Shown here piece after piece: positions 3,917-18,600 of a stretch of 64,000 nucleotides of DNA. The translations under genes were made by a program, and so were the position numbers. The stretch comes from Candidatus Woesearchaeota archaeon (GTDB lineage Archaea > Nanobdellota > Nanobdellia > Woesearchaeales > JACJVV01), in the NCBI GenBank assembly GCA_047602755.1, contig JBLKOM010000006.1, positions 77,561 to 141,560 of the forward strand, in the 5' to 3' direction. Position 1 is the stretch's first letter, and each line of letters begins with the position of its first letter. Below the pieces are notes generated by a model. It did no database searches and had not been told where the DNA came from. It saw only the letters and a list, made by a program, of their open reading frames with translations.

Positions 3917-4122
3917 TTTGTTATGCTCTTTCTTGCTCTCCTTCTACTTTAAAATCAGAGTTACTATCTGAGTCTTCAGATGTATTATTTCCATTTAATA
4001 TATTATTTAATTCAGTTTCATTTTTAATTTTAAATAAATTATTAACTCTTTCTATATCCGTAGCACTACTTACATTTCCTAAATATTTAGTTAACATTTG
4101 ATTAAAATTATCTTCTACCATA

Positions 4123-5754
4123 TTAATTATTTCTCCATAAAATAAAAGGATTGAAATTAAAATCAAGTACACCTTGATTTTTTAATTGAGTTTTAATAGT
4201 ATCAGTAGGATTATCAGCATGTTGAATAATTAAATTATTAATTGCATCTAATTCATTATTATCCATTTCTTTATCTAATACAGCTACAAATACTCTTAAA
4301 AAACACATCATAGGATTATCATGTTTATTAACATTAAATATAGGGCTAATTATAACTTTTGGATTACTATAAAAATTATGACAAAAATGATCATCATAAA
4401 CTAATTTTTGAATAGATTTATTTTCATATTTAAAACTAATACTTAAATTTGTTATCTTTAATCTATTATTAAGTTCATGTTTGGTTAATATTTTTGGATT
4501 ATCAAAACCTAATGTGTTGTAATAAGACACAAAAAATACATGATAATGTTTTTTGCCAATTCCTTTTTTAATATGAAAATTAGAATCTTCATTGGAAATA
4601 TTATTACTTATAACATTCATTATTTTTGGAACTGAACCAAAAGGATTATCTAAAGAAGAATTATGAACCTTAATAGTTGTACTCTCAATTAAAACAACTT
4701 TAGAATTATTATCACCTTCATTTATTTCTTTACTTAATATAATATTATTATGTGCTTCTTTAGAAAAATCTGCAATTTGAACAAAAGGAGAAAAGAATTC
4801 TAGTTTTGCTTTTTTATAACCACTATCTTTTAATACAAGTGATTCAATAGATTCAATTTTTGAACCTTCTGGAATATCTTTAAATTCAAAATAACCATCT
4901 TTATCAGCAATAGTAAAAGTAGTTACATCTGGAAGAGTTTTTTGTTGCATATGTTTTTCAGAATTACTTATTTTAAGTTTAATTATATGACCATTTAATC
5001 CAATAGATAAAGGAGTTCTACTACCATCATTACCTGCATAAACATCTTTTGCCCAGTCTAATGCATGTGTATTATCATATTGAATTGGATTTGGACAATC
5101 TGTAATAGTTTCTTTAGTAACAAGTCTACCTTTAATTGTAAATTTTTCTTTACTTTTTCCACCTACATCCCATCTAGTCCATTTCCATCTTAAATCTTCA
5201 TCGTGGATAACTCCAAGTTTATCAAAGAATTTATCAACATCTAATATTTTTTTAAAGGAACCTCTAAATATGTCTTTTAATCTAGGACTTTTTTTTGCTG
5301 CCTTATAAATTTCATTAATCTGATGCTGTTTTGCTCTTGCGGCTCCTAAACCAATTACAGGATATTGTTGAAGTATAGATTCTGGAATTTCTTGAAATTC
5401 ATCTTCAAATGGATGATTAAGTAAAGTTATACCTTGCATACCAAGGAAGTGACCATGAACAAATCCTCCAAATTTAACATTTCCTTCAATTTCACCAGGC
5501 TGTTTTGTTTGCTGTTCTCTTGATGTTACTTGATCAACATTTCCTATTTCTCTAGGATACTTACCACTATTATTTAGCTTTCTAAAAGCCTCATCAGCAT
5601 CACTAGCTTCAAATCCCCACCAAGTATAAAAGAAAATCTCATTTTTTTGCTTTTCTAATTTCTCAACAGGATCTTGCTCATTAGGATTTTCAACTACTTC
5701 ATCAATAACATCTTCAATTATTTCATTCAAGTTGTTAAAATTGTTGTCTGGCAT
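4123..5754 (-). CDS. hypothetical protein (543 aa) with a possible CarboxypepD_reg-like beta-sandwich segment
   Basis: Long ORF. The segment ...GHIIKLKISN...TIADKDGYFEFKDIPEGSKIE resembles carboxypeptidase-regulatory-like domains. No signal peptide. Confidence 0.55.
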   Translation of the reverse strand: MPDNNFNNLNEIIEDVIDEVVENPNEQDPVEKLEKQKNEIFFYTWWGFEASDADEAFRKLNNSGKYPREIGNVDQVTSREQQTKQPGEIEGNVKFGGFVHGHFLGMQGITLLNHPFEDEFQEIPESILQQYPVIGLGAARAKQHQINEIYKAAKKSPRLKDIFRGSFKKILDVDKFFDKLGVIHDEDLRWKWTRWDVGGKSKEKFTIKGRLVTKETITDCPNPIQYDNTHALDWAKDVYAGNDGSRTPLSIGLNGHIIKLKISNSEKHMQQKTLPDVTTFTIADKDGYFEFKDIPEGSKIESIESLVLKDSGYKKAKLEFFSPFVQIADFSKEAHNNIILSKEINEGDNNSKVVLIESTTIKVHNSSLDNPFGSVPKIMNVISNNISNEDSNFHIKKGIGKKHYHVFFVSYYNTLGFDNPKILTKHELNNRLKITNLSISFKYENKSIQKLVYDDHFCHNFYSNPKVIISPIFNVNKHDNPMMCFLRVFVAVLDKEMDNNELDAINNLIIQHADNPTDTIKTQLKNQGVLDFNFNPFILWRNN

Positions 5755-5757
5755 TTT

Positions 5758-8391
5758 TTATAAATTCTCAATTCTATTTTTTACTAAGCTATATAATACT
5801 TTGAAAAACTCAATGGTATCATCCATGTTATCTTTATTTCTAAAACTCTTTTTTATCTCTAATTGCATTGAGTCTACACCAGTTTCTTTATTGATAAATT
5901 TAGTTACTGTTTCATCAGTATTAGCTCCAAAACGATCATTCAAAACAACAGAATATTTTCCATTGTTGCTTAATATAGGAATAAGAGTATCTTCAACTAA
6001 AGTTTTATCTTTTGTATCATTTTTTGCTGTTCCAATATATATATCATGATCATGATTATTATTACACCCATGTAAATCTATTACCAATATTGACCTATTC
6101 ATAGTAACATAATTAATTAAACTTTGTTTGTATGATAAAATTTGACGATTAGAATCATCAACTTCCCCCAAAATATTTTTATCTTTAGAAGATGAATTAG
6201 AAGATTCATAATTAAAATAATTAGCATCTCTAGACTTAGCACTAGTATAAATAATTGGGCAATCTAATAATTCATTTAATAATAAAGCAAATGCACCAGT
6301 CATCTCATCTGAATTATGTTCTATTATTTCTCCATTTTTTTTATCAGTTCTCCTTATACTCCTAACATTATGCGGGGCTGATAAAATAACTTTTGATTTT
6401 CTTCCTGTAATTAATTTAAAAGATTTTGATGTAATTTCTATTTGATTATTATTTTTAGTAGATGAATTAAAATAATCTAGTAATTTATTTTTTAATTCAT
6501 TATCTGATGGCAATTTATTAGTAATTTTTTTAGATGCCATCGTAGTAGTAGTATTTTTAGTGGTTGTATTAGAAGGCTTTTTAGTAGAAGTGATTTTAGA
6601 TAAAGGAATTTTTCCTGTATTGAAATAAATAACTAAATCATATAATGCTTTAAATAAATTAAAAAGTTTTTTTCGAGCTGATTTATTTCTATAAGAATTG
6701 CTTAATTGTAACTCTATAGGTATAAAATCAGGATTTTTTAATCTATTACTATAATAAATAATATCAATTACTGGATTTTTTGAAATTTCTTTATTAGTAG
6801 GTTCAAGTTTAATATTATAATAATTAAAAATATCAATTATATCTTTTTGAATTTTTTTAGATAAATTGTTTGCCCTAAGAAATATTTTATCTTCAGAACT
6901 AATTATACCAATTATATTTATTAAATATTTTTTATCTTCAATAATTTCTAATAATTTAGCTTTATATGGTAGCATTCCATTATTTATGTTATCTTCAATA
7001 GTAAAAGCACTAATATCATCAAAATTAGTTGTTACAGAATTACAATCAAATGATTCTGGATCTCTTGATTTTAAATCTGAATATATTATCGGGCAGTCAG
7101 CATATGCCTGTAAAAGAATAGCAAATGCACCAGTAAATAAATCAGGATTACGTTCTTTTGTTTTTTTACCATCAAAATATAAATAAGATGAATAGTGAGG
7201 TGCTGATATAACTACTGAACTTGTACCATCATAATTTTTAAAAGAAGCATCAGGAAAAGATAGTTTATCAAAATCTTTAGATTTCCAATCATTAATTAGC
7301 CTATTAACAATAGCATTCTCATTTTTATCAAAATCATGAGTCACTTTTTCGGATGATGAAGAAGAAGGTAAATTATTAAATCCTTGTAAAATTAATATAC
7401 CTAGTTCTTTAAAAGTATCATAATTATTATTAGAAGAATTTAAAATACTTTTTATTTTATCTTTATATTCATCTTGAACTTTCTCTATTTTCTCATTAAG
7501 TGAATCTTTTTGTCTAAAAGTTTCAAACCCAATACGATAACTGAAAATATCATGATGTGTTTTTTTATCATCTATTTTAGAAGTATCTTTTGCTAAAAAT
7601 GGCATAACCCATGAAATACTTTTTGTTTTATAATTAATATTTAGACCTAACTGATTTAATTTATTAATACAACTATCTCTTATAACAGTTGCTATTTCTG
7701 AAGCTTTTTCTAAATCTTTTTCATTTAATTTGCTTAAATTTACAGCACATGTTTTTACATGTGTATTTTGTACTGCCTTTCGATAATAGCTTTCATCCTC
7801 ACCTAAATCTTGATATGCAAGATATTTTCTTATTATTTCAAGAATCTTTTTATTTGTCTCATTCCCTTCATTACTCGGCCTATTATTTGAACTAGATTCT
7901 TCTTCTTTTACTTGTTGTTGTTCCTGGTGGATGTCAGGGGCTTTATATCCAATATCAGAGATAAATTTATTTAAAATATTGTCAAATAAAGTATGTAAAT
8001 GATTCTTAAATCTACCACTTCTTACAATTTCCCATAATTCTTTTTTAGATTCATTTTTTGGTTTCTTATTATTTGGATTATATTGACTTTTGAAAAAATC
8101 TTTAATACCTAGATGAATATGTTTTTTAAAATAATTTTCAGTTTTTTCTAGAATATCATTGATTTCTCTATCATCAAAAATAAAATTATTATTATGATAT
8201 AAATAATAATGCGCTGTTTGAAATGATGGATTGTTCTTTTGAGTATTTAGATTTGATTTGAATTGTTCTCTTAACTCAGAGAAAGAATATTCATTATTAG
8301 CTTTAAGTTTTCTAATTAAATAAATCATATACCAACGTTTTATAGTTCTAGTTGCTACATTTCCTGCATCTCTTTTTTTAGTAAAAAACAT
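5758..8391 (-). CDS. large hypothetical protein (877 aa) with two tandem copies of a putative Zn-amidohydrolase-like domain
   Basis: Internal duplication: ...SAPHYSSYLYFDG...FTGAFAILLQAYADCPIIYSDLKSRD... and ...SAPHNVRS...EMTGAFALLLNELLDCPIIYTSAKSRD...IDLHG.... The SAPH/E/IDLHG pattern is reminiscent of the poly-gamma-glutamate hydrolase, N-formylglutamate amidohydrolase and carboxypeptidase-like fold (tentative). Stop is 3 nt before the next gene's start. Confidence 0.6.
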   Translation of the reverse strand: MFFTKKRDAGNVATRTIKRWYMIYLIRKLKANNEYSFSELREQFKSNLNTQKNNPSFQTAHYYLYHNNNFIFDDREINDILEKTENYFKKHIHLGIKDFFKSQYNPNNKKPKNESKKELWEIVRSGRFKNHLHTLFDNILNKFISDIGYKAPDIHQEQQQVKEEESSSNNRPSNEGNETNKKILEIIRKYLAYQDLGEDESYYRKAVQNTHVKTCAVNLSKLNEKDLEKASEIATVIRDSCINKLNQLGLNINYKTKSISWVMPFLAKDTSKIDDKKTHHDIFSYRIGFETFRQKDSLNEKIEKVQDEYKDKIKSILNSSNNNYDTFKELGILILQGFNNLPSSSSSEKVTHDFDKNENAIVNRLINDWKSKDFDKLSFPDASFKNYDGTSSVVISAPHYSSYLYFDGKKTKERNPDLFTGAFAILLQAYADCPIIYSDLKSRDPESFDCNSVTTNFDDISAFTIEDNINNGMLPYKAKLLEIIEDKKYLINIIGIISSEDKIFLRANNLSKKIQKDIIDIFNYYNIKLEPTNKEISKNPVIDIIYYSNRLKNPDFIPIELQLSNSYRNKSARKKLFNLFKALYDLVIYFNTGKIPLSKITSTKKPSNTTTKNTTTTMASKKITNKLPSDNELKNKLLDYFNSSTKNNNQIEITSKSFKLITGRKSKVILSAPHNVRSIRRTDKKNGEIIEHNSDEMTGAFALLLNELLDCPIIYTSAKSRDANYFNYESSNSSSKDKNILGEVDDSNRQILSYKQSLINYVTMNRSILVIDLHGCNNNHDHDIYIGTAKNDTKDKTLVEDTLIPILSNNGKYSVVLNDRFGANTDETVTKFINKETGVDSMQLEIKKSFRNKDNMDDTIEFFKVLYSLVKNRIENL

Positions 8392-8416
8392 ATTTTCTCC
8401 TCATTTTTTAAATAGC

Positions 8417-10012
8417 CTAAATACTTCGTTTTCTTGTATGTGAACTTATTTCTCCTTTTGTTTTTATTTTTTTATTACCATTACCTAAATCTTCGAATTT
8501 AACATGATGTATTGAAGGCTCAAAACCCCATGCATCTTCTGATTTAAAATTAAGTTGAATAGATTTCATTCCTTTATATCCTGAAGGAAGCCTGAATTGC
8601 ATATGTGCTTCAAACTTTAATTTTTTATTTGTAAATAAATCTTTTATGAAACCAACTTTATTTCGACTTTTGTATTTTTCATCTTTGCTTAAATCATAAG
8701 TTACATCAATAAATACATTTTTATTTACTGGGAGTATATAATAATCATCAGATGGAACTACTCCATTAGTGTCAGTTGGCTGATCTGGGTATTTATAACC
8801 AGCAGATGTTACAGAAACCATAGCACCTTGAACATTCTCATTATCTTCATTTTTTACATGAACTTTCAATAAAGCAACTTCTGAGTTTTCTTCTAAAACT
8901 CTATCAGATGTATCATCAAAATCATCATCATCTGTACCATCTTTTTTGCCTTTCTTTTTAGTACTTTTCTTTTTTGTTTTATCATCATAATCATCTAATG
9001 ATTTATCTCCTTTAGATACAACAATTCCTTTAATTGTTTTATTTTTCTTTATTTTAAATGGTGGTTTTTTACCTCTATGGTCATTATGTCCATTATATGA
9101 ATTCCAATAAGGGTCATTATTAGCAATTACAACATCAACAACAACTTCTTTATCTTCAACATCTTTTATTACTATTGCAAAATTACCCACTCCATTTGAA
9201 CGAGCTCTTGCTAGAGTATTACCAGAAGAATCTAATGCTTCAACAATAGTTGAGACTGGTTCATTATCATCATTAAGTACTTTACCAATTAATGTAACTT
9301 TTCCTTTAGCACCTTTACCATCTGATCCACCGCCTGAGCCTCCACCTGAACCACTACCTGAACCATCACCTGAATCACTACCTGAACCATCACCTGAATC
9401 CCCACCTTTTTTTCTAAACATCCACATTGCTAACCAAACAAAAGTTATAAGCCAGCCCAATGCAAAAAGTGGGGAACCTCTTCTACCCATTAACCATCCA
9501 TAAAAAATCATAGTTAAAGCAGCTCCTATTAATGCTTTTTTCCATCTATCATCTTCAGGATCAGCATCTTTTAAGCCGAAGTAGGTCATTGCAAATATTA
9601 ATAATGATAATAATATCCCACCAAGTATTGCATATGGTCCAAGTATACTATCAAGTGCTTCACTAACACTCACTGCTCCACCATTTAAGAATATTAAACC
9701 AAAAATACCTAATGATGATAGGATTGCTAAACATAAAGAAACAATTTTTCCATATTTATTTGTTGGGGAGCCACTAAAAACTGGAATTTTACCCATTAAT
9801 GGAACAAAAATATTATAGAACATTATTGTGAATATAATGACTGTTATTCCAAAAACAGCATAATCATTAGTTAATAATTGTTCTAAAAATACTCCACCAG
9901 TATTAAAAACATTCAAGAATTCTTGCATACCTGGATTTGCTAAGACTGGCTTTGAAAATAGTGTTAAAATTAGTGTGTAAAATACATTTTTCATCCATCT
10001 AGCAGTTCTCAT
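8417..10012 (-). CDS. multi-pass membrane protein (531 aa) with a Gly/Ser/Asp-rich linker and a C-terminal globular (probably extracytoplasmic) domain
   Basis: N-terminal hydrophobic helices, then GGDSGDGSGSDSGDGSGSGSGGGSGGGSDG encoded by a nucleotide tandem repeat at about 9345-9410. N-terminal membrane module is paralogous to the adjacent 179-aa ORF. Confidence 0.6.
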   Translation of the reverse strand: MRTARWMKNVFYTLILTLFSKPVLANPGMQEFLNVFNTGGVFLEQLLTNDYAVFGITVIIFTIMFYNIFVPLMGKIPVFSGSPTNKYGKIVSLCLAILSSLGIFGLIFLNGGAVSVSEALDSILGPYAILGGILLSLLIFAMTYFGLKDADPEDDRWKKALIGAALTMIFYGWLMGRRGSPLFALGWLITFVWLAMWMFRKKGGDSGDGSGSDSGDGSGSGSGGGSGGGSDGKGAKGKVTLIGKVLNDDNEPVSTIVEALDSSGNTLARARSNGVGNFAIVIKDVEDKEVVVDVVIANNDPYWNSYNGHNDHRGKKPPFKIKKNKTIKGIVVSKGDKSLDDYDDKTKKKSTKKKGKKDGTDDDDFDDTSDRVLEENSEVALLKVHVKNEDNENVQGAMVSVTSAGYKYPDQPTDTNGVVPSDDYYILPVNKNVFIDVTYDLSKDEKYKSRNKVGFIKDLFTNKKLKFEAHMQFRLPSGYKGMKSIQLNFKSEDAWGFEPSIHHVKFEDLGNGNKKIKTKGEISSHTRKRSI

Positions 10013-10017
10013 CTTAC

Positions 10018-10557
10018 TTATTTATTGCTTTCACTAGCTTCAGTCAATAATCCAGCACTACTAATATATAAAATTAACCCAATAATACCTATAAGCCAAC
10101 CAATTGCTTGCACATTTGGACTTGAAACAAAATATCCAGAAATTGCCATTGAAAAACCAATACCAATTACTGCTATATGCCAACGACCTTCTTCTTTATT
10201 TCCCATACCAAAATAGATTATTGCAAAAAAGAAAATAGATAAAACAACCCCTGCATAAACTCCAAATGGAGTTAGCACATTTGTCACAACTTCACGAATA
10301 TTATCTGTTTGACCAACTCTAAAGATTCCAAATGTAGAAACTAATGAAATAGTTAATGCAGTAGCTTTTCCATAACGATTTGCTTTACTATCATTGCCTA
10401 AACCTGGAACTTTTCCAATAATTGCAAGAATTATAGCATAAAACAAGACAGTCATTACAACAAAAGATGCAATATACATAGAATGATCATCCTGAAAGAA
10501 ATTAATAATAAATCTTCCAGTATTCTCAAATGCATTTACATAGTTCTGTACGTCCAT
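10018..10557 (-). CDS. membrane protein (179 aa), paralog of the N-terminal module of the upstream gene
   Basis: Shared motif: VPGLGNDSKANRYGKATALTISLVSTFGIF here versus VFSGSPTNKYGKIVSLCLAILSSLGIFGL in the 531-aa neighbour. Confidence 0.55.
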   Translation of the reverse strand: MDVQNYVNAFENTGRFIINFFQDDHSMYIASFVVMTVLFYAIILAIIGKVPGLGNDSKANRYGKATALTISLVSTFGIFRVGQTDNIREVVTNVLTPFGVYAGVVLSIFFFAIIYFGMGNKEEGRWHIAVIGIGFSMAISGYFVSSPNVQAIGWLIGIIGLILYISSAGLLTEASESNK

Positions 10558-10692: not shown

Positions 10693-11283
10693 TCAACCAA
10701 ATAATGATTTTCTTTGTCTTGCAATATTTCCCATCATATTTGGAAGCATAGATTTTACAAGTAAATTGTAAATTTTATCTCGTTTTGATCTTATATATGA
10801 ATGAGCATCAGAAACATCTTTTGCATGTTTTCTATCATAAGTTTCAAGCCAACCTTCTACAGTTTTAATATTTAGCCTATTAGCAACATATTTTCTAACT
10901 CTTTCTGAATTAGCAAAATCTCGCAAAAACTGAATTAATTTAACTTCATTTAAGTCTGTAATTGATCTTTTACCCATAATAACTGCATCAAAATCAGCAT
11001 CACCAGTTATTACTTCATGCTTAAGTTTACTAGCAATAAAACCCATTCTATGAGACAATGCTTGTGTTAAATGAGGAATTGCACCTTTACAATAATTATC
11101 TGTAGGATTATCAACAACTGCTTCTAAATATTTACGATTACCTGATGGAATTTGATTCCAAATAGAAGGCTCTGATCTTAATTCTTTTATTATTTCAACT
11201 ATTTCATCATTAGAGCACTTATATAACATATCGATATGCTGCTCAACTTTTTCTAAAAGTAATTCAATTTTGTTTTTATCCAT
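10693..11283 (-). CDS. hypothetical protein (196 aa)
   Basis: ORF only. Confidence 0.5.
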   Translation of the reverse strand: MDKNKIELLLEKVEQHIDMLYKCSNDEIVEIIKELRSEPSIWNQIPSGNRKYLEAVVDNPTDNYCKGAIPHLTQALSHRMGFIASKLKHEVITGDADFDAVIMGKRSITDLNEVKLIQFLRDFANSERVRKYVANRLNIKTVEGWLETYDRKHAKDVSDAHSYIRSKRDKIYNLLVKSMLPNMMGNIARQRKSLFG

Positions 11284-11518
11284 TTTATCACCTATTTAAT
11301 AAATAATGTAATACCATTTTTTTGATAATAAAACTTAATAAATATTTATATTTTTAAAATATTATAATTTCAAGGAATAATAATCTAAAAGAATTAGGAA
11401 TTACAAGTTATTTTTCCTTAGTTTATGAAATTAAAAATGTATATTAGAGACATTAATGATTATCACTAATTTTTTAGAATGAATAAATAAAATAAAAAAA
11501 TATAAAATATTTACTTAA

Positions 11519-11794
<276 letters not shown>

Positions 11795-12052
11795 TATAAT
11801 ATCCACCTCTTATTTTATTATAAATTAGGTTATAACACTATTTTGAACTTTATAGTATATAAAGCTTTTTATTTTTTTAATATAATTTATTATTTTTTTA
11901 TAAAAAATAAAATAAATATTTAAAACTAAAAAAATATTCTTTTTTATAAATTTTATTTTATCGACTATAAAATTTAGAATTATTTAAGAAGTAGATAAAA
12001 TCAAATTAATTTTATCAAAAAAATAAAAAAAATAATTTTTTAACTAAAAAAA

Positions 12053-13972
12053 TTAATAATTTACAAGAACTTCAACATCCTTACCAAAAATATTTTTAAG
12101 ATCTTCAAAAACTCGTTGCTTTAGAAAAACTTTATTTGGAATTTCTATTTTTACAAGATGCTTTTCTAAGTCTTCAATTGTTGCTGAAATTATATTTTTT
12201 AAAGAACCATCTTCGTCTATATCTGCTTTTGAAACACCTTGATTTTGATTATCTAAATCATGAATAATGAATGCAACTTTGTCTAACATAATCACTTCAC
12301 CATATTTATCTCCATGTTTCACCCTTATTTTTGCACGTTCTAGTTCTCTTCCTTTTTTACGTTGGATATATTCAATTACAAATCTAATAATATCTCTGGA
12401 ATCTTTTTTGCATTTTTCAACATCGGTTTTAGATAATTTTTTTGCATCAAAATCTTTTTTAGCTTTGATTACATCTTCAAGCATTCTTTTATATTTCTCA
12501 GGAATTTTTCCGTGCGTTATTAAGTAATCTTCAAAATACTTTAGAATGTCATCATTTTTTACACCTTTAACTCCTTCAAGACTAAGTGCATCTCTTACTA
12601 ATGTAACAATTGTTTCATATATATGCAGAACATCTTCTTCTTCTTTACGTTTTTCAATATCAGTAAATAATGTTTTTATTTTTTTTAAATAATCATCAGC
12701 ATCCTTTAACATTTTATCAATTTCTGCACCTTTAAGTTCTTTTTTAGTTCCATGCTCTAAATCTTTTCTTATTCTTATAACATGCTCAAGTATTTCAATA
12801 GATTTTGCATCAAACATTTTTTCTTTTTTTACAAAGATTTCTTTCATTAAAGTAGCTGTTTCTCTTGGTGCAGGAGGTGCAATACCATACATCATTAATG
12901 CTGCTTGTGATGGAGTAAGTAAAGCATAATATATATCTTCCATCCCTATTTCTTTTATTTTAAACTCAACACGTTTAATCATTTGTTCACCAGATGACAT
13001 AAACATATCAATTGCTTCAGCAGATGGTTTTATTTTACCCATTTTTAGTAATTGTTTCCATGGCATAAAAATACCTCTATCAAAGAAAGGAACACCATCT
13101 CTTAATAATGTGAAAATTACAGGATTTGCTTCTTTTAATGAATCCCAGAAATCTGTTAAGATATATACTTGTATATTTATTTTATTTTGAATTCCAGTCA
13201 TCTGACCAGCTTCATAACCCATTCCAATAATTATAGCTCTTAATTTATCTTTTAATTCTGCACGAGTCATTTTTTTAACATCAGTATCATCAATTACAAT
13301 CCATACATCAATATCTGAAGTTTTTGTTGCTTGCCCTCGTACAATAGAACCTGCAAGAACATAACTAACAATATATTTTTCAAACTTTTTAACAACCATA
13401 CTCTTATGAATTTCTGATATTTTTATCGCTGCAAGCATACCATTATCATATATTGGCGCACTCATTGCAATTTCTTGAAGATAATCATATTTTGCATCAT
13501 AGCAAGATTGCCATAATTCACTTAAAATAATTGTTTGTGGTTTAAGATTCTTATCAATTTCTTGAGCCATTTGAGCAATAATTATGCTTAATTTATCTTT
13601 AAGCTCTTGCTTAGTCATTTTTTGACTATCATTATCATCAATAAGAACTAAAACGTTAATATCGTCAGGATTAGACTTTTCTTTTTTAATATTTTCCATC
13701 CCTTCTGGAAGTTCAGCCATGTCTTTTTTCATTGATTCATGTTGTTGTTTTACAGGAGGAAGTAAAGCAATACCAACGACGTACTTGTCAAATTTTTCAA
13801 TTACATTTTTAGTAAAAGTATCTAATTTTTCTTTTATTTTCTTTAACTTTTCTTGAGCTTCTTTTGGTAATTTTGAAATATCTTGATTTCCTATTTGTGT
13901 TTGTGCATCATTAGGATTAGCAGTAGAAATATTTTTTACATTTTTAGATTTTGCAGACTTTGATTTTACCAT
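12053..13972 (-). CDS. protein with two tandem Pol-beta-like nucleotidyltransferase-fold domains (639 aa)
   Basis: Second domain has the canonical GS-x9-DxD signature: VLAGSIVRGQATKTSDIDVWIVIDD. A degenerate first copy is present (...DDINVLVLIDDND...). Both are followed by the near-identical KKMT(K/R)(Q/A)ELKDKL. C-terminal alpha-helical region. Confidence 0.6.
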   Translation of the reverse strand: MVKSKSAKSKNVKNISTANPNDAQTQIGNQDISKLPKEAQEKLKKIKEKLDTFTKNVIEKFDKYVVGIALLPPVKQQHESMKKDMAELPEGMENIKKEKSNPDDINVLVLIDDNDSQKMTKQELKDKLSIIIAQMAQEIDKNLKPQTIILSELWQSCYDAKYDYLQEIAMSAPIYDNGMLAAIKISEIHKSMVVKKFEKYIVSYVLAGSIVRGQATKTSDIDVWIVIDDTDVKKMTRAELKDKLRAIIIGMGYEAGQMTGIQNKINIQVYILTDFWDSLKEANPVIFTLLRDGVPFFDRGIFMPWKQLLKMGKIKPSAEAIDMFMSSGEQMIKRVEFKIKEIGMEDIYYALLTPSQAALMMYGIAPPAPRETATLMKEIFVKKEKMFDAKSIEILEHVIRIRKDLEHGTKKELKGAEIDKMLKDADDYLKKIKTLFTDIEKRKEEEDVLHIYETIVTLVRDALSLEGVKGVKNDDILKYFEDYLITHGKIPEKYKRMLEDVIKAKKDFDAKKLSKTDVEKCKKDSRDIIRFVIEYIQRKKGRELERAKIRVKHGDKYGEVIMLDKVAFIIHDLDNQNQGVSKADIDEDGSLKNIISATIEDLEKHLVKIEIPNKVFLKQRVFEDLKNIFGKDVEVLVNY

Positions 13973-14357
13973 TTTTACGAAACCTCGTTTTTATTTTTAT
14001 CAAATAAACATACACTATATATATTATTATTTAATTAAAATTATTGTAAATTTTAACAATTAAACAATTAATAATCATTTTAAGTAAATCAAGACATGTT
14101 ATTATATATAAATACTTCCCTTGGATTTAATACTTAGTAGGGACATTTCTGACATATTAATAATTAATATGTTAGATGCTTTTTGATGAACATAATTTGA
14201 TTTCACTACACAATCAGCATAAACTTTAAAAACATAGGATTTCTAATTGTAATTATATTACTATTTTATAATCAAAACAGTATTTTAATAAAAAGTAATA
14301 AAACAAAAAATAATATAAAATAAAAATTATATAATAAAAAATCTAAGGTGATGTTCA

Positions 14358-14996
14358 ATGGCTGATAAACCAGTACTACCATTATATGAAGGAACAGATA
14401 TAAATTCAAATGTTGATCAATATATTAAAATCAATACGCCAACTGCTGTTGAAGCAAGAAGAAGAAGAGTAGAAAAACATGGCAGAAAGCATCAAGAGCA
14501 TATTGATGATAAAATTGTTGGAGATAAAAGATTAAAAGACTTAAAAGCTTCTGAAAGAAAAACATATGTTGCAAGAGCTTTAGAATACCTTGCAAGAGAA
14601 TGGTATGATGCTCATGGTGTTAAGCTTGATAAAGTGACGCCTGAAATGATGGATGCATTTTTACAACAGGCTGGAGTTGGAGATTATAATACAGTTTTAA
14701 AACAAATTGTTAATAATGAAGCAGACCTTGACCTTTATGGACCAAGAAACCAGTATCTTAATGCAATAAGAGAAAGAGTAGCTGAAGCAAAAGATAAAGA
14801 AGGACTTGAATCACAAAGACTTGAAAGAACTTTTGAGAGCAGATTAGAATATTTACCTGTCCTTCAAAAGAAATTGGCTAAAGCACATGAGAGACCAAAA
14901 GAATATGATGCATCTGCAAGTGTAAGAGAAATGCTTCAAGAGCAAAGAAAATACCAAGCTAGAAAAATGGATTCAGGATATGACCAAACGTATTAA
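14358..14996 (+). CDS. hypothetical protein (212 aa)
   Basis: ORF with divergent arrangement to the nucleotidyltransferase gene. Confidence 0.5.
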   Translation: MADKPVLPLYEGTDINSNVDQYIKINTPTAVEARRRRVEKHGRKHQEHIDDKIVGDKRLKDLKASERKTYVARALEYLAREWYDAHGVKLDKVTPEMMDAFLQQAGVGDYNTVLKQIVNNEADLDLYGPRNQYLNAIRERVAEAKDKEGLESQRLERTFESRLEYLPVLQKKLAKAHERPKEYDASASVREMLQEQRKYQARKMDSGYDQTY

Positions 14997-15007
14997 GAGT
15001 TAATAGA

Positions 15008-15382
15008 ATGGAACATATCAATAAGTTTTATTCACATGCTAGACAAGAATTAGATGATTTCTTAAAATCTGTTGATTATAGTACTATTTCAAAAGCAAAA
15101 GGAATATTAGCAGAATTACAAGATATTCCTGAAGAATATCATGCAGAAATAAAGCAAGTAGTTATTGATAGGTTAAAAGATTTTTACCAAATTACAATGG
15201 AACATCTGCAAAAATATGATATAGCTGATTTTAAAATACTTGACCATTTAGCTGTTCAAGGAAATGCTGATGTAATTAAACAGACATATGGGATTGCAAG
15301 AAGGGAAGAAGCAAAAGGAAATCCTAAACCATATATGGTTCAGCAAAATCAATATACAACTAATACTCCAGAAAAGATGTAA
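15008..15382 (+). CDS. hypothetical protein (124 aa)
   Basis: ORF 11 nt downstream of the previous gene on the same strand. Confidence 0.45.
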   Translation: MEHINKFYSHARQELDDFLKSVDYSTISKAKGILAELQDIPEEYHAEIKQVVIDRLKDFYQITMEHLQKYDIADFKILDHLAVQGNADVIKQTYGIARREEAKGNPKPYMVQQNQYTTNTPEKM

Positions 15383-15609
15383 AGTAATTTAAATCAATCA
15401 AATTTTATATGATAATTAAGCTTATTTATTATTTTTTTTATTAGATTTTTTCTTTACTTTAGAGAAATCATGTTCTGATTTTATTTCAGAGCTAGATAAA
15501 GAAATATTATTGTCATACTTTACTATTTCAATAGCATTATTATTTTTTTTAGATAATAGTTTATTTTTTTTTATTAATATATTATCTTTAAAATTTATAA
15601 TTTTTTCTT

Positions 15610-18600
15610 TTATACTAAATTTAGATCTTTTTTTTTAAAAAAACTCTCATTTGATTTATTATTATCAGAATAAAAAAAAGATCTATCTTTTTTGATTGCA
15701 GTATCAGCTTCAATTGTGATTAAGCGTTCTTCAATTTCTACTAAACGTTCTTGATAATTATGCATTCTATTTTCATAAGCACGCGTATCAAGTTTTTTAG
15801 TTTCAAGATAATCATGCTGAGTTTCACGAATTAAATCAGTTAAACGTAATTTTTCAGAGCTCAAATGCTTAACTTCATTACCTAAAAATTTTAATAAACT
15901 AGCACGAATTGTTTCATACATAATTATTTGTTGGACAACATCATTAATACGAGATTCATATTGTAGCATTGCTTGCTGATATTCTTCGATTGTAACTCTA
16001 CCTAGTTCAAAACATTCATGCTGAAGTTCTTGTATTAAACCTAGAATTACACTATTTTCTTTATGAAGTACTTTAAGACGATTTTGAACATATAAATATC
16101 TTAAAAAAATTGCTAAAATAAATGAAAATATAATTAATCCAAACAAAGATAAAAGCAATAATCTCCAGTTATCTCTTAGGAAAGAAGTTAAATTAAAAAC
16201 ACCAACTGTTTCTAGAGCAAAAGATACCTCTGCATCTTTAGCACGGTTATATGCTAAAACAAAATCACCGCGATCCAATGCTGCTTGTGCAAGAAGTAAA
16301 AGTCGTTCAGTCTCAGGGGTTTGAATTCTTCGAGAATTTGCGTTAGTAACTAAATCGCGGATTTCATCTAATAATGAAGAAGACAATAAAGCTAGATCAT
16401 ATAAATTTAGAATATTTAGATTAATATTTATAATTTTTTGATATTCTCTTAAATTTAGATTAGTATCAAAAGATTTTGTAAGTTCTAATATTTTAACAGT
16501 GTTAAAACCAAGTTTATCTAATATGTTTATTAATTCTTGAGATTCAAAAATTAATTCCTCTGCTTGTATACGAGATATTGGAACAATATATAATTCAACT
16601 ATACGTTGTTCTTGAATTGGGCTATAACGAAAATTAGTAGTATTACCAATTATACGAGAATTATTAATTACAGCTCTAATAATAAACAATAGTTCATAAT
16701 AACCATCAATAAAATATTCTGGAGCAGAAATAATTATATCATATTCTTTTGATTCATTTATTTTAAGATTATATAGATCTTTAGGTTGTATGTCAATATA
16801 TTGACTTAAAAAACCAGATAATTCAACACTAAGATTAAGCATTTCACCAGTAAATGTATTCTCAACTATTAAATTAAATTCTTCATCACTTCCACGAACA
16901 AGTTCATATGTTGCATTTGTTTGAAATAATGCTTCACGTTGAAACTCTGTCAATAATATAGGTTCATTAATATTTAAAGAACCGCCGCCGCCACCAGGAT
17001 TACTCCAAGAAATAGGTTCTTCTGAAGGAGTAGGTGCTATATAATCACCATCAGCACTACCACAAGCTTTTACATATATACCATCAGGAATTGAGGAGCA
17101 TACAAAAGACAAATTAATTTTGTGTTCTTGGATACTAGCGCTATTTGGAAGACGTGCATTCCCTCCTGTATAATTTTTACCATAAGAATAAACTGTTATT
17201 TCTACAAGAGATTCTTGCATAAAAGGCAAATTACTCTCATTAAATTCAAAAATAATATAATTATAATTTTTTGAATTATTTGAGATATTATTATAAAATA
17301 ATTCAATAGTATGAGTTGCATATTCAATGATTGTGTCACTTCCAATAACATATTGACTTGCTATGCTATAAACCACAGCAGATTTTGCAACATTAAAATT
17401 ATTTGGAAAATCCCAACCAAAGCTAACATTAAAAGCAGTATTCTCAATTTGATTATTACCTCCAACATTCTCAAGAGATGCATTAAGAGTTAAATTTTGT
17501 CTTAATAATGGAATAATCCATAGATTATTATCTGCAGAATAAAAAATAGATCTAGTACTTTGTGGAGAAAATATTTCTTGATGAAGTAATTCACCTGGAG
17601 TTAAAATATACAATAATGTTGAAACATTTCGAGATGAAACACCTTCAACAGTATCAGTTTTATTAGAAGAAATAGTTATTTTTGGAGTTTCAGTTAAAAT
17701 AATATCAGTATCAACCTGAGGAAAACTTGCATTAAAACTAATTATACCTAACTCACCAACATCTAATATTATTGATGAAGAATGCTGAAGCCCTCTATTA
17801 TTTGAAATCCACTTACTTGAATCACTAAAAGCAAGAATTGAATATTCAGCACTTAGTCCACTATATGATGGTGTGAATCTAACTACGCAACCATCATATT
17901 CAGGGTCTCCAGTGTTTGTTATAGTAATATCTCCAATAGGTTTATCTTCAAAATAACCATTTATAGGGCCTAATGACATTGGTGAATTTATCCAAGATAT
18001 ATTCCATGAACAATCCCAAGCAGATTCAAATGACACATTTGAAGTAAAGTTATTATTACCTGCTGTGTCATTTGCCCATATGAAAAAAGTATAATTTTGT
18101 TCTTGAGATGATAAAATAAGATCATATTCATACAGATTTCCAGAGATATAATTCATAGAATAATTTATTTGACTGCTTGAATTAAAAGTAACTAAAACAA
18201 CAGAATCAATATCCAATTGTGAATCAAATACATTCGCAGTTATAGTAATAGTTTCACCTGGATCAATATCATTAAGATTAGACGGAGTATAATTAATAAG
18301 CTCAACATCAGGTGATGTTGTATCAAGATTAATTTGACGAAGTTCTGTGGTATTGCAATTTCCTGCTTGATCACAAGCTTCAACGTCAAAGTAATATTGT
18401 CCATTGGGTAAATCTGTGAAATTATACCAAGTTTCCTCTGAGCCATCATCAAAATTACTAATGTTGCTTAAGTTTGTGTCATACAAATAGAAGTTGTATA
18501 CATCAACATTATCTTCTACAAGTGAAAAATTAATGAAAATCCAATTTCTTGAAAAATTAGAGTTATTTAAGGGAGTTCCATTAATCCCATCAACATCATC

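Follow-up and report, generated by a model that had tools for sequence, protein, structure and literature searches.

Results

A seven-gene array with a tandem hydrolase-like protein

We analysed a window of 64,000 nucleotides (nt; G+C about 27%) from the metagenome-assembled genome of a Candidatus Woesearchaeota archaeon, in which four packed minus-strand open reading frames (ORFs) occupy positions 4123–10557. Our main subject is w877, a protein of 877 amino acids (aa) with two tandem copies of a hydrolase-like domain. Proteins of the window are named by their length in aa (w877, w543, w531, w179, w388, w309, w1329); at NCBI, w877 is ACMXYG_05990 and w179 is ACMXYG_06000, on a 148-kb contig. 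An earlier note, made from the sequence alone, had described four co-oriented genes with gaps of 3–25 nt, and the ORFs and gaps are as it claimed: 5 nt between w179 and w531, 25 nt between w531 and w877, and 3 nt between w877 and w543. Below w543, a 66-aa ORF, w388 and w309 follow at gaps of 1, 4 and 15 nt. Since all gaps from 10557 to 1805 are of 25 nt or less, the array comprises seven genes, not four (Table 1). The ATG of the 66-aa ORF lies 1 nt past the w543 stop, and the ORF ends 4 nt before the start of w388; the ORF-listing program gives it as an 83-aa ORF with a GTG start, overlapping w543.

A predicted amidohydrolase fold in w877

Firstly, w877 contains an internal repeat: aa 348–587 align with aa 621–870 at 28% identity over 253 columns (BLASTP, E 3e-22), which bears out the internal duplication proposed earlier. 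Both copies carry SAPH, TGAFA(L/I)LL, DCPIIY, KSRD and YK. IDLHG, which the earlier note had also assigned to both, occurs only in the C-terminal copy; the N-terminal copy reads INIIG. Whole-protein scans of w179, w531, w877 and w543 against Pfam, NCBIfam and PHROG gave no match, nor did w877 aa 1–347, for which no counterpart was found in the related loci described below. Scanned alone, the C-terminal copy matched PF05013 (N-formylglutamate amidohydrolase, FGase; E 2.3e-6) and PF05908 (poly-gamma-glutamate (PGA) hydrolase; E 5e-3, 16.7 bits for a threshold of 22). The N-terminal copy had no Pfam match when scanned.

Secondly, structure prediction gave the C-terminal copy a hydrolase fold. The AlphaFold2 model of aa 621–877, built on a 42-sequence alignment, has a predicted local distance difference test score (pLDDT) of 89.5 and a predicted template-modelling score (pTM) of 0.89; a 2-sequence alignment gave a pLDDT of 42. 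The model is an alpha/beta/alpha sandwich, the fold of the solved structures of FGase and of the PGA hydrolase PghP. Its Foldseek matches in the PDB were 3a9l (PghP of phage PhiNIT1, E 1.9e-7), 21dc (PGA hydrolase of phage PM1, E 1.5e-6), 2odf (Atu2144, E 2.2e-6), 5onj (PghL/YndL of B. subtilis, E 3.2e-6) and 2q7s (FGase, E 7.9e-6), each with a Foldseek probability of 1.00 and with target-normalised TM-scores of 0.44–0.60. M28 and M14 peptidases, AstE and Amidase_3 ranked lower. The matches in the viral library were of the same kind and included PGA hydrolases of phages, FGases of giant viruses and, from the archaeal tailed virus HCTV-1, a protein of 1045 aa. Profile match and model together identify the C-terminal copy as a divergent member of the FGase/PghP (M14-like) zinc-amidohydrolase superfamily, in agreement with the likeness to FGase, PGA hydrolase and M14-like zinc hydrolases that had been noticed before.

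Thirdly, this copy belongs to a larger family. Full-length w877, in a word-indexed homology search of 5.8 billion proteins, found only itself and no close orthologue. A profile of both copies, searched against 1.84 billion cluster representatives at E ≤ 1e-3, retrieved 281 proteins, mostly of a single domain of ~220 aa, whose alignment displays the motifs SAPH..R, (D/E)xxTG, DPNY, YK, IDLHG, GT, FxA and QxEIN..R. PF05013 is matched by 25 of 41 members (best E 1.4e-8), and public records describe the members as hypothetical protein only. Since the H-x4-E and H-x-T-S motifs of PghP are absent and both Pfam thresholds were missed, we file the family under neither Pfam entry; its sequences mark this SAPH/IDLHG/QxEIN family as a new, separate and uncharacterised branch of the FGase/PghP superfamily.

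PghP and PghL, the best structural matches, have in common with the w877 domain the alpha/beta/alpha fold and the placement of three residues: one His behind the first core strand, another on a later strand, and a Glu that closes a late strand. However, their identity to it is only 11–18%. Where PghP has H40/E45, w877 reads HNVRSIR, with no Glu at His+5 and a conserved Arg at +6; the H78/T80/S81 motif of PghP is unmatched too, its equivalent in w877 being KSRDANY. In addition, PghP and PghL are single domains of ~200 aa, whereas w877 is archaeal, 877 aa long and endowed with a second, probably dead copy. FGase (PF05013; 2q7s, 2odf) is the best sequence-profile match, and the IDLHG and QLEI of w877 presumably resemble its iDlHS and qiEi motifs, but the new family has an invariant set of its own (R680, Y754-K755, G787-T788, F821 and A823 in w877), and w877 is multidomain, with no hut operon nearby. 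M14 carboxypeptidases and the AstE/AspA succinylglutamate desuccinylases have the fold class and general mechanism in common with the superfamily; their Foldseek matches were weaker (E 1e-4 to 1e-3, much lower TM-scores), and the HxxE motif and any match to their Pfam entries are absent from the w877 domain.

One copy probably catalytic, one probably not

Comparison with the family alignment revealed that the C-terminal copy retains all 19 invariant or near-invariant positions. In family numbering, with the w877 residue in brackets, these are H54 (H674), R60 (R680), D/E75 (D695), T78 (T698), G79 (G699), D102 (D722), N104 (N724), Y134 (Y754), K135 (K755), D152 (D772), H154 (H774), G155 (G775), G167 (G787), T168 (T788), F201 (F821), A203 (A823), Q223 (Q843), E225 (E845) and R231 (R851). 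H674, H774 and E845 are invariant or nearly so across 41 to 42 homologues, and in the model (domain numbering) H674 follows strand 48–52, while H774 lies within strand 149–156 and E845 within strand 220–227. The zinc ligands of PghL/PghP are His41/40, Glu46/45 and His102/103, and the catalytic Glu165 of PghL, at the end of beta7, is the spatial equivalent of Glu270 of carboxypeptidase A (PMC6506827). By analogy, H674, H774 and an acidic residue, D695 or D772, are candidate metal ligands, and E845 is a candidate general base.

The N-terminal copy departs from the family at R60, N104, D152, H154, G167, T168, F201, A203, Q223 and E225: R60 is replaced by Tyr, D152 by Asn and H154 by Ile, the GT pair is deleted, and Q223/E225 read E/Q. 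Having lost the DxH motif, its general-base Glu and one Arg, this copy is probably inactive. Of the two tandem Zn-amidohydrolase-like domains described earlier, both are indeed members of the family, but only the C-terminal one looks catalytic.

This arrangement recurs. P0127 (431 aa) and P0071 (422 aa, present on at least 30 contigs) are independent tandem duplicates of the same hydrolase domain. In both, the first copy is intact, and the second lacks the Asp and Gly of the DxH region, the GT motif and the catalytic Glu; this live-then-dead order is the reverse of that in w877. Judging by these losses, the pairing of an active with a dead copy in tandem has at least three separate origins in the SAPH/IDLHG/QxEIN family. 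The independent tandems of P0127 and P0071 therefore argue that the pairing is functional, and suggest that the live and dead copies form a functional pseudo-dimer of one catalytic and one non-catalytic subunit.

Family context points to a glutamate amide

Fusions and neighbours of family members bear on the substrate. About 13 members are fused to gamma-glutamylcyclotransferase (GGCT, PF06094), two to RimK/GshB-type ATP-grasp domains and several to SLH cell-wall anchors. Another, P0006 (468 aa, lipoprotein-like N-terminus), is encoded on a Marinimicrobia contig (L014, 1265–8555) in the same direction as a CapB/PgsB-like gene (Mur_ligase_M), one for CapC and four that have no annotation, a possible operon for PGA synthesis and turnover in an uncultivated bacterial phylum. 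In addition, gamma-glutamylglycine amidohydrolase also falls in PF05013 (PMC9397018). Because of the GGCT, ATP-grasp and SLH fusions, the CapBC-like operon, the PF05013 precedent and the PghP/FGase fold, we infer that the bond cleaved would be an amide on glutamate, whether N-acyl-Glu, gamma-glutamyl or poly-glutamyl.

The membrane pair is fixed, the hydrolase is an add-on

We read ten related loci (L001 onward), of which L001 comes from the sister, or closest, genome. Orthologues of w179 (49–81% identity) were found only in a set of Woesearchaeota-like contigs and always directly upstream of a w531-like gene, so that the membrane pair is adjacent in ten of ten loci. The core order, common to all ten, is a ~640-aa NTP_transf_2 protein, a small Lys/Ala-rich basic ORF, the w179 orthologue, the w531-like protein and large proteins. 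The NTP_transf_2 protein, always directly upstream of the membrane pair and on the same strand, is 74–84% identical across the related loci, far above any neighbour. The w531-like proteins have a signal peptide, the paralogous transmembrane module, a locus-specific low-complexity linker and a variable tail. The large proteins after the pair (628–1818 aa) lack a signal peptide and are modular, and their parts are reshuffled, fused or split between loci. L004 and L005 are near-identical strains, with 94% identity over the initial 472 aa of their large protein, yet the 1455-aa protein of L004 (11784–16151) corresponds to two proteins of L005, of 1232 aa (4902–8600) and 371 aa (8603–9718), and the internal beta-rich repeats are rearranged. 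A fusion or fission event thus separates the two strains. The module of w388 behaves likewise: it has its own gene in the window, L001 and L005 and is fused to the giant protein in L004.

Among the loci examined (window, L001–L006, L008, L009), only the window and L001 have the hydrolase domain. An HMM (hidden Markov model) search did not find it in L002–L005, and tblastn with w877 returned nothing in L006, L008 and L009 (its output did not cover L007 and L010); scans of genome and metagenome contig DNA recovered only the L001 genome and one 2.8-kb contig. We considered the N-terminal domain of the L001 628-aa and L002 652-aa proteins as a degenerate hydrolase and rejected it (hhalign probability 0.2%). 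Hence, the hydrolase of w877 does not belong to a conserved four-gene system; it is an addition, specific to one lineage, to an operon that is conserved yet hypervariable. Missing as it is from most of the related loci searched, it is not essential to the operon core. Of the dedicated four-gene system of the earlier note, what holds is the membrane pair, which is syntenic in all ten loci; the array has seven genes, its downstream part is shuffled, and the four-gene unit is not kept.

The best evidence for a partner of w877 comes from the L001 genome, where a 1006-aa ORF (13522–16542) consists of a single active hydrolase copy, a linker, a YxW/GLGA/WKW module and beta-rich repeats, and is colinear with the C-terminal copy of w877 plus w543. 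This suggests a recent gene fission or fusion at the w877/w543 junction. A joint action of w877 and w543 is supported most strongly by this union of their equivalent parts in one polypeptide. In the window, positions 5755–5760 and the codon that follows read, in one frame, the TAA stop of w877, AAA and the ATG of w543. Read-through or a pseudogene split was considered here and rejected, and we treat w877 and w543 as separate genes, because TAA is a strong stop and a common frame arises by chance in one case out of three.

Domains of w543, w388 and w309

In w543, aa 31–214 form the conserved 'YxW...GLGA...WKW' module, aa ~215–330 are a possible beta-sandwich, and aa 331–543 have no detectable relatives. 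Counterparts of the module stand at the N-terminus of two large proteins, of 1455 aa in L004 and 1232 aa in L005 (37% identity, E 1e-36), at the C-terminal end of the 628-aa protein of L001 and the 652-aa protein of L002, and behind the hydrolase domain in the 1006-aa protein of L001. The carboxypeptidase-regulatory-like beta-sandwich claimed earlier for w543 did not reach significance, its scores being weak both for Pfam CarbopepD_reg_2 (E 0.16) and for a custom HMM made from the L008 repeats (E 0.15). Among syntenic proteins, CarboxypepD_reg (PF13620/PF13715) was found at E 3e-31 in L008 and 7e-4 in L004, and CarboxypepD_reg and Ig-like repeats are significant in the large proteins of L008 and L006.

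The C-terminal half of w388 appears helical or coiled-coil from its sequence. This protein is 43% identical to a 364-aa protein of L001, and it is also related to a 371-aa protein of L005 and to the C-terminus of the giant 1455-aa protein of L004. w309 also looks helical or coiled-coil, and is 46% identical to a 309-aa protein of L001 and 29% to a 323-aa protein of L004.

The membrane pair and the predicted location of the array proteins

w179 and aa 29–198 of w531 are paralogues (30% identity, BLASTP E 2e-23), as had been claimed. w179 has about five transmembrane helices and a predicted N-out/C-in topology. w531 consists of a signal-peptide-like N-terminus (aa 1–25), the five-helix module (aa 29–200), a low-complexity Gly/Ser/Asp linker (aa ~201–235), a first soluble domain (aa 236–335), a charged stretch (aa 336–375) and a C-terminal domain (aa 376–531). 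The linker does arise from tandemly repeated DNA, with a period of 12/24 nt (24-nt unit at 92% matches, Tandem Repeats Finder (TRF) score 98–109, direct-repeat family D2), which encodes aa ~203–232; the linker differs in every orthologue. The parts on either side have separate relatives: w531 aa 1–337 are 69% identical to a 369-aa protein of L001, and aa 376–529 are 45% identical to the 406-aa protein of L004/L005. A polytopic protein with a beta-rich domain after the linker had been proposed; w531 does have about five hydrophobic helices and a soluble C-terminal part, and its CarboxypepD_reg match is no better than E 0.06–0.18.

The membrane module has weak matches to DUF4149 (PF13664, TMEM205-like) in 8 of 18 family members (E up to 0.1, best 6.1e-6). 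The profile did not match w179 or the w531 module themselves, and no solved structure matching the module was found. In contrast to DUF4149, we deal here with an adjacent duplicated pair, one member of which has a signal peptide, specific to this Woesearchaeota clade.

No hydrophobic stretch was found in w877, w543, w388 and w309 (19-residue Kyte-Doolittle maximum below 1.6), and a signal-like N-terminus is missing from all the orthologous giants; w1329, our internal control, showed a hydrophobic segment at both its N- and C-terminus. In 20 membrane-module sequences, the tail together with loops 1 and 3 has a K/R count of 9.2, and the N-tail together with loops 2 and 4 has one of 3.7. These counts, with the signal peptide of the w531 type, therefore predict an N-out, five-helix, C-in topology, and the soluble parts of the array proteins would be cytoplasmic by classical criteria. 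The envelope-remodelling role suggested earlier is weakened by the missing signal peptides and the predicted cytoplasmic tail of w531.

Discussion

The reading that we favour, with fair but not high confidence, is that w877 is a soluble live-plus-dead zinc-amidohydrolase, an accessory enzyme of a lineage-specific operon and a partner of w543; as part of it, the co-directional array would be a seven-gene operon of one Woesearchaeota clade. The protein would consist of an unrelated N-terminal region, a dead copy and a live copy. By analogy with PghP/PghL and carboxypeptidase A, H674, H774 and a carboxylate would hold a Zn ion, and E845, at the end of a beta-strand, would act as general base for a metal-activated water. 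The activated water would then cleave an amide on a glutamate-type substrate, an N-acyl-Glu or a gamma-glutamyl or poly-glutamyl linkage. The N-terminal copy would probably be a non-catalytic partner, either in a pseudo-dimer or in substrate binding. The w877 gene would be an accessory enzymatic module of an operon whose core is the paralogous DUF4149-like five-helix pair, and its product would work with w543, perhaps in physical contact, in the cytoplasm or close to the membrane.

Several observations weigh against this interpretation. The PF05013 match of the C-terminal copy reaches 28.4 bits for a gathering threshold of 28.9, 0.5 bit short, and its alignment covers model positions 129–216 of 219, the C-terminal 40%. 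Sequence-only PDB searches with the protein and with family profiles gave no significant match; their output held spurious GH5 'DLHGA' matches and PghP at E 0.17. The PghP-type Glu five residues after H674 is absent, and there are two rival candidates for the carboxylate, D695 and D772. As to the substrate, the gene contexts of family members are heterogeneous, three out of five being uninformative, and homologues of CapB/CapC were sought in the 64-kb window and none was found. As to location, the topology comes from a hand-made positive-inside count, not from a trained predictor, and the Thr/Pro- and Gly/Ser-rich linkers and Ig-like repeats of the orthologous large proteins are typical extracellular archaeal features.

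These last features also belong to an alternative that we judge unlikely yet worth serious consideration, namely that w877 is an extracellular depolymerase. Here, w877 and w543 would be exported or displayed without a classical signal, perhaps via the membrane proteins, and the hydrolase would attack a glutamate-containing envelope polymer of the archaeon or its host, as phage PghP cuts capsule. The nearest solved folds are indeed phage and Bacillus PGA hydrolases, the HCTV-1 1045-aa protein has the same fold, and the family has SLH-anchored and lipoprotein-like members, one of them in a CapBC-like operon. The Ig-like/CarboxypepD_reg repeats (L008, E 3e-31) and Thr/Pro-rich linkers of the orthologous large proteins fit as well, and so does the hypervariability of the locus, which is frequent among host-interaction loci. 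However, w877, w543 and the orthologous large proteins lack the signal peptide and transmembrane segment that w1329 has, the tail of w531 falls inside the cell under the positive-inside rule, and the array contains no ATPase or known secretion component. A bolder reading, in which the locus would be a so far undescribed membrane-anchored apparatus that presents or delivers host-interaction proteins, with w877 as a recently recruited enzymatic head cleaving a glutamate-containing envelope polymer of the host, seems doubtful to us; the giants behind the membrane pair have no signal peptides, look rich in beta-sandwich and coiled-coil by sequence and carry swappable heads.

More improbable still is a role as a protein deglutamylase or peptide-tag remover, which would trim glutamate tails or gamma-glutamyl modifications from the neighbouring large proteins during cytoplasmic maturation or regulation. 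Deglutamylation is a known activity of M14-like cytosolic carboxypeptidases, some family members carry a fused RimK/GshB-type ATP-grasp ligase and others a fused GGCT, and in L001 the enzyme is fused to a putative client module. Against this, there is no ligase in the array or among the scanned genes of the window, the neighbouring proteins have no evident Glu-rich tail, and the hydrolase was not found in the related loci searched other than L001.

An ordinary metabolic enzyme, a HutG-type FGase or small-molecule amidase with chance neighbours, is very improbable. FGase is the best Pfam match, and we take the D-x-N motif of w877 (DANY) to be nearer to the DxNR of FGase than to the HxTS of PghP; but the match is partial and sub-threshold, the family is well separated and annotated as hypothetical only, and the domain sits in an 877-aa protein beside a dead copy and, in L001, in a fusion to beta-rich repeats. 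In addition, no hut genes were found near w877, the window having his biosynthesis genes instead. Finally, a purely structural or adaptor protein with two non-catalytic copies is hardly credible: the N-terminal copy is degenerate and w877 evolves fast, with no close orthologue among 5.8 billion proteins, but the C-terminal copy retains every invariant or near-invariant residue, the two His, the Asp of DxH, the Glu and two Arg among them.

The w877 domain provides a fold and a testable candidate active site (H674, H774, E845) for ~280 clusters now labelled hypothetical, in a family that the FGase and PghP entries of Pfam both miss at threshold. The repeated live-plus-dead tandems point to pairing as an obligate feature of the architecture, of use for understanding FGase/PghP enzymes generally. 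From the GGCT/ATP-grasp fusions and the neighbourhood with CapBC one may suspect that glutamyl-amide hydrolases form a wider set that is still unexplored. The locus itself, conserved yet rapidly reshuffled in an uncultivated DPANN lineage with the membrane pair as fixed point, is a reasonable candidate for cell-surface or host-interaction biology.

Neighbouring genes and features

Table 1. Features of the array and of its surroundings in the window
Feature	Position	Strand	Description
w179, 179 aa	10018..10557	-	membrane protein
w531, 531 aa	8417..10012	-	membrane module, linker and soluble part
DNA tandem repeat, period 12/24 nt	9317..9407	-	encodes the Gly/Ser/Asp linker of w531
w877, 877 aa	5758..8391	-	tandem hydrolase-like copies
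w877 aa 1–347	7351..8391	-	unique Lys/Asn/Glu-rich N-terminal region
w877 aa 348–600	6592..7350	-	degenerate FGase/PghP-like copy (family HMM, E 2e-40)
w877 aa 621–877	5761..6531	-	intact FGase/PghP-like domain (Pfam, AlphaFold2, Foldseek)
w543, 543 aa	4123..5754	-	YxW/GLGA/WKW module protein
66-aa acidic ORF	3921..4121	-	read from sequence
w388, 388 aa	2750..3916	-	same array
w309, 309 aa	1805..2734	-	last gene of the array
196-aa ORF	10693..11283	-	no family match
95-aa basic ORF	11519..11806	-	Lys/Ala/Pro-rich, KKKxAKKK repeats
639-aa protein	12053..13972	-	NTP_transf_2 domain (Pfam, E 2e-6)
w1329, 1329 aa	15610..19599	-	Laminin_G_3 (E 1e-20) and Big_13 domains

The genes around the array are ordinary cellular ones (His biosynthesis, phosphomannomutase, sugar nucleotidyltransferase, P-type ATPase). 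We considered a viral or provirus origin of the locus and rejected it: the membrane module, w543 and w877 have no relatives in IMG/VR, no tRNA or Rfam features were found in the window, and no flanking long repeats hint at a mobile element.

On the upstream side of w179 lies first a 196-aa ORF that has no counterpart in the other loci and looks like a genome-specific insertion between the basic ORF and w179. The 95-aa basic ORF is encoded by a 15-nt tandem repeat of 17 copies, within a repeat tract at 11465–11833; an equivalent ORF of 61–148 aa stands between the nucleotidyltransferase gene and the w179 orthologue in L001, L002, L004, L006 and L009. Its product could be a histone-H1-like or nucleic-acid-binding protein. 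The 639-aa protein comes next, and beyond it w1329, with a signal-like N-terminal segment and a C-terminal transmembrane segment, resembles a conventional archaeal surface protein.

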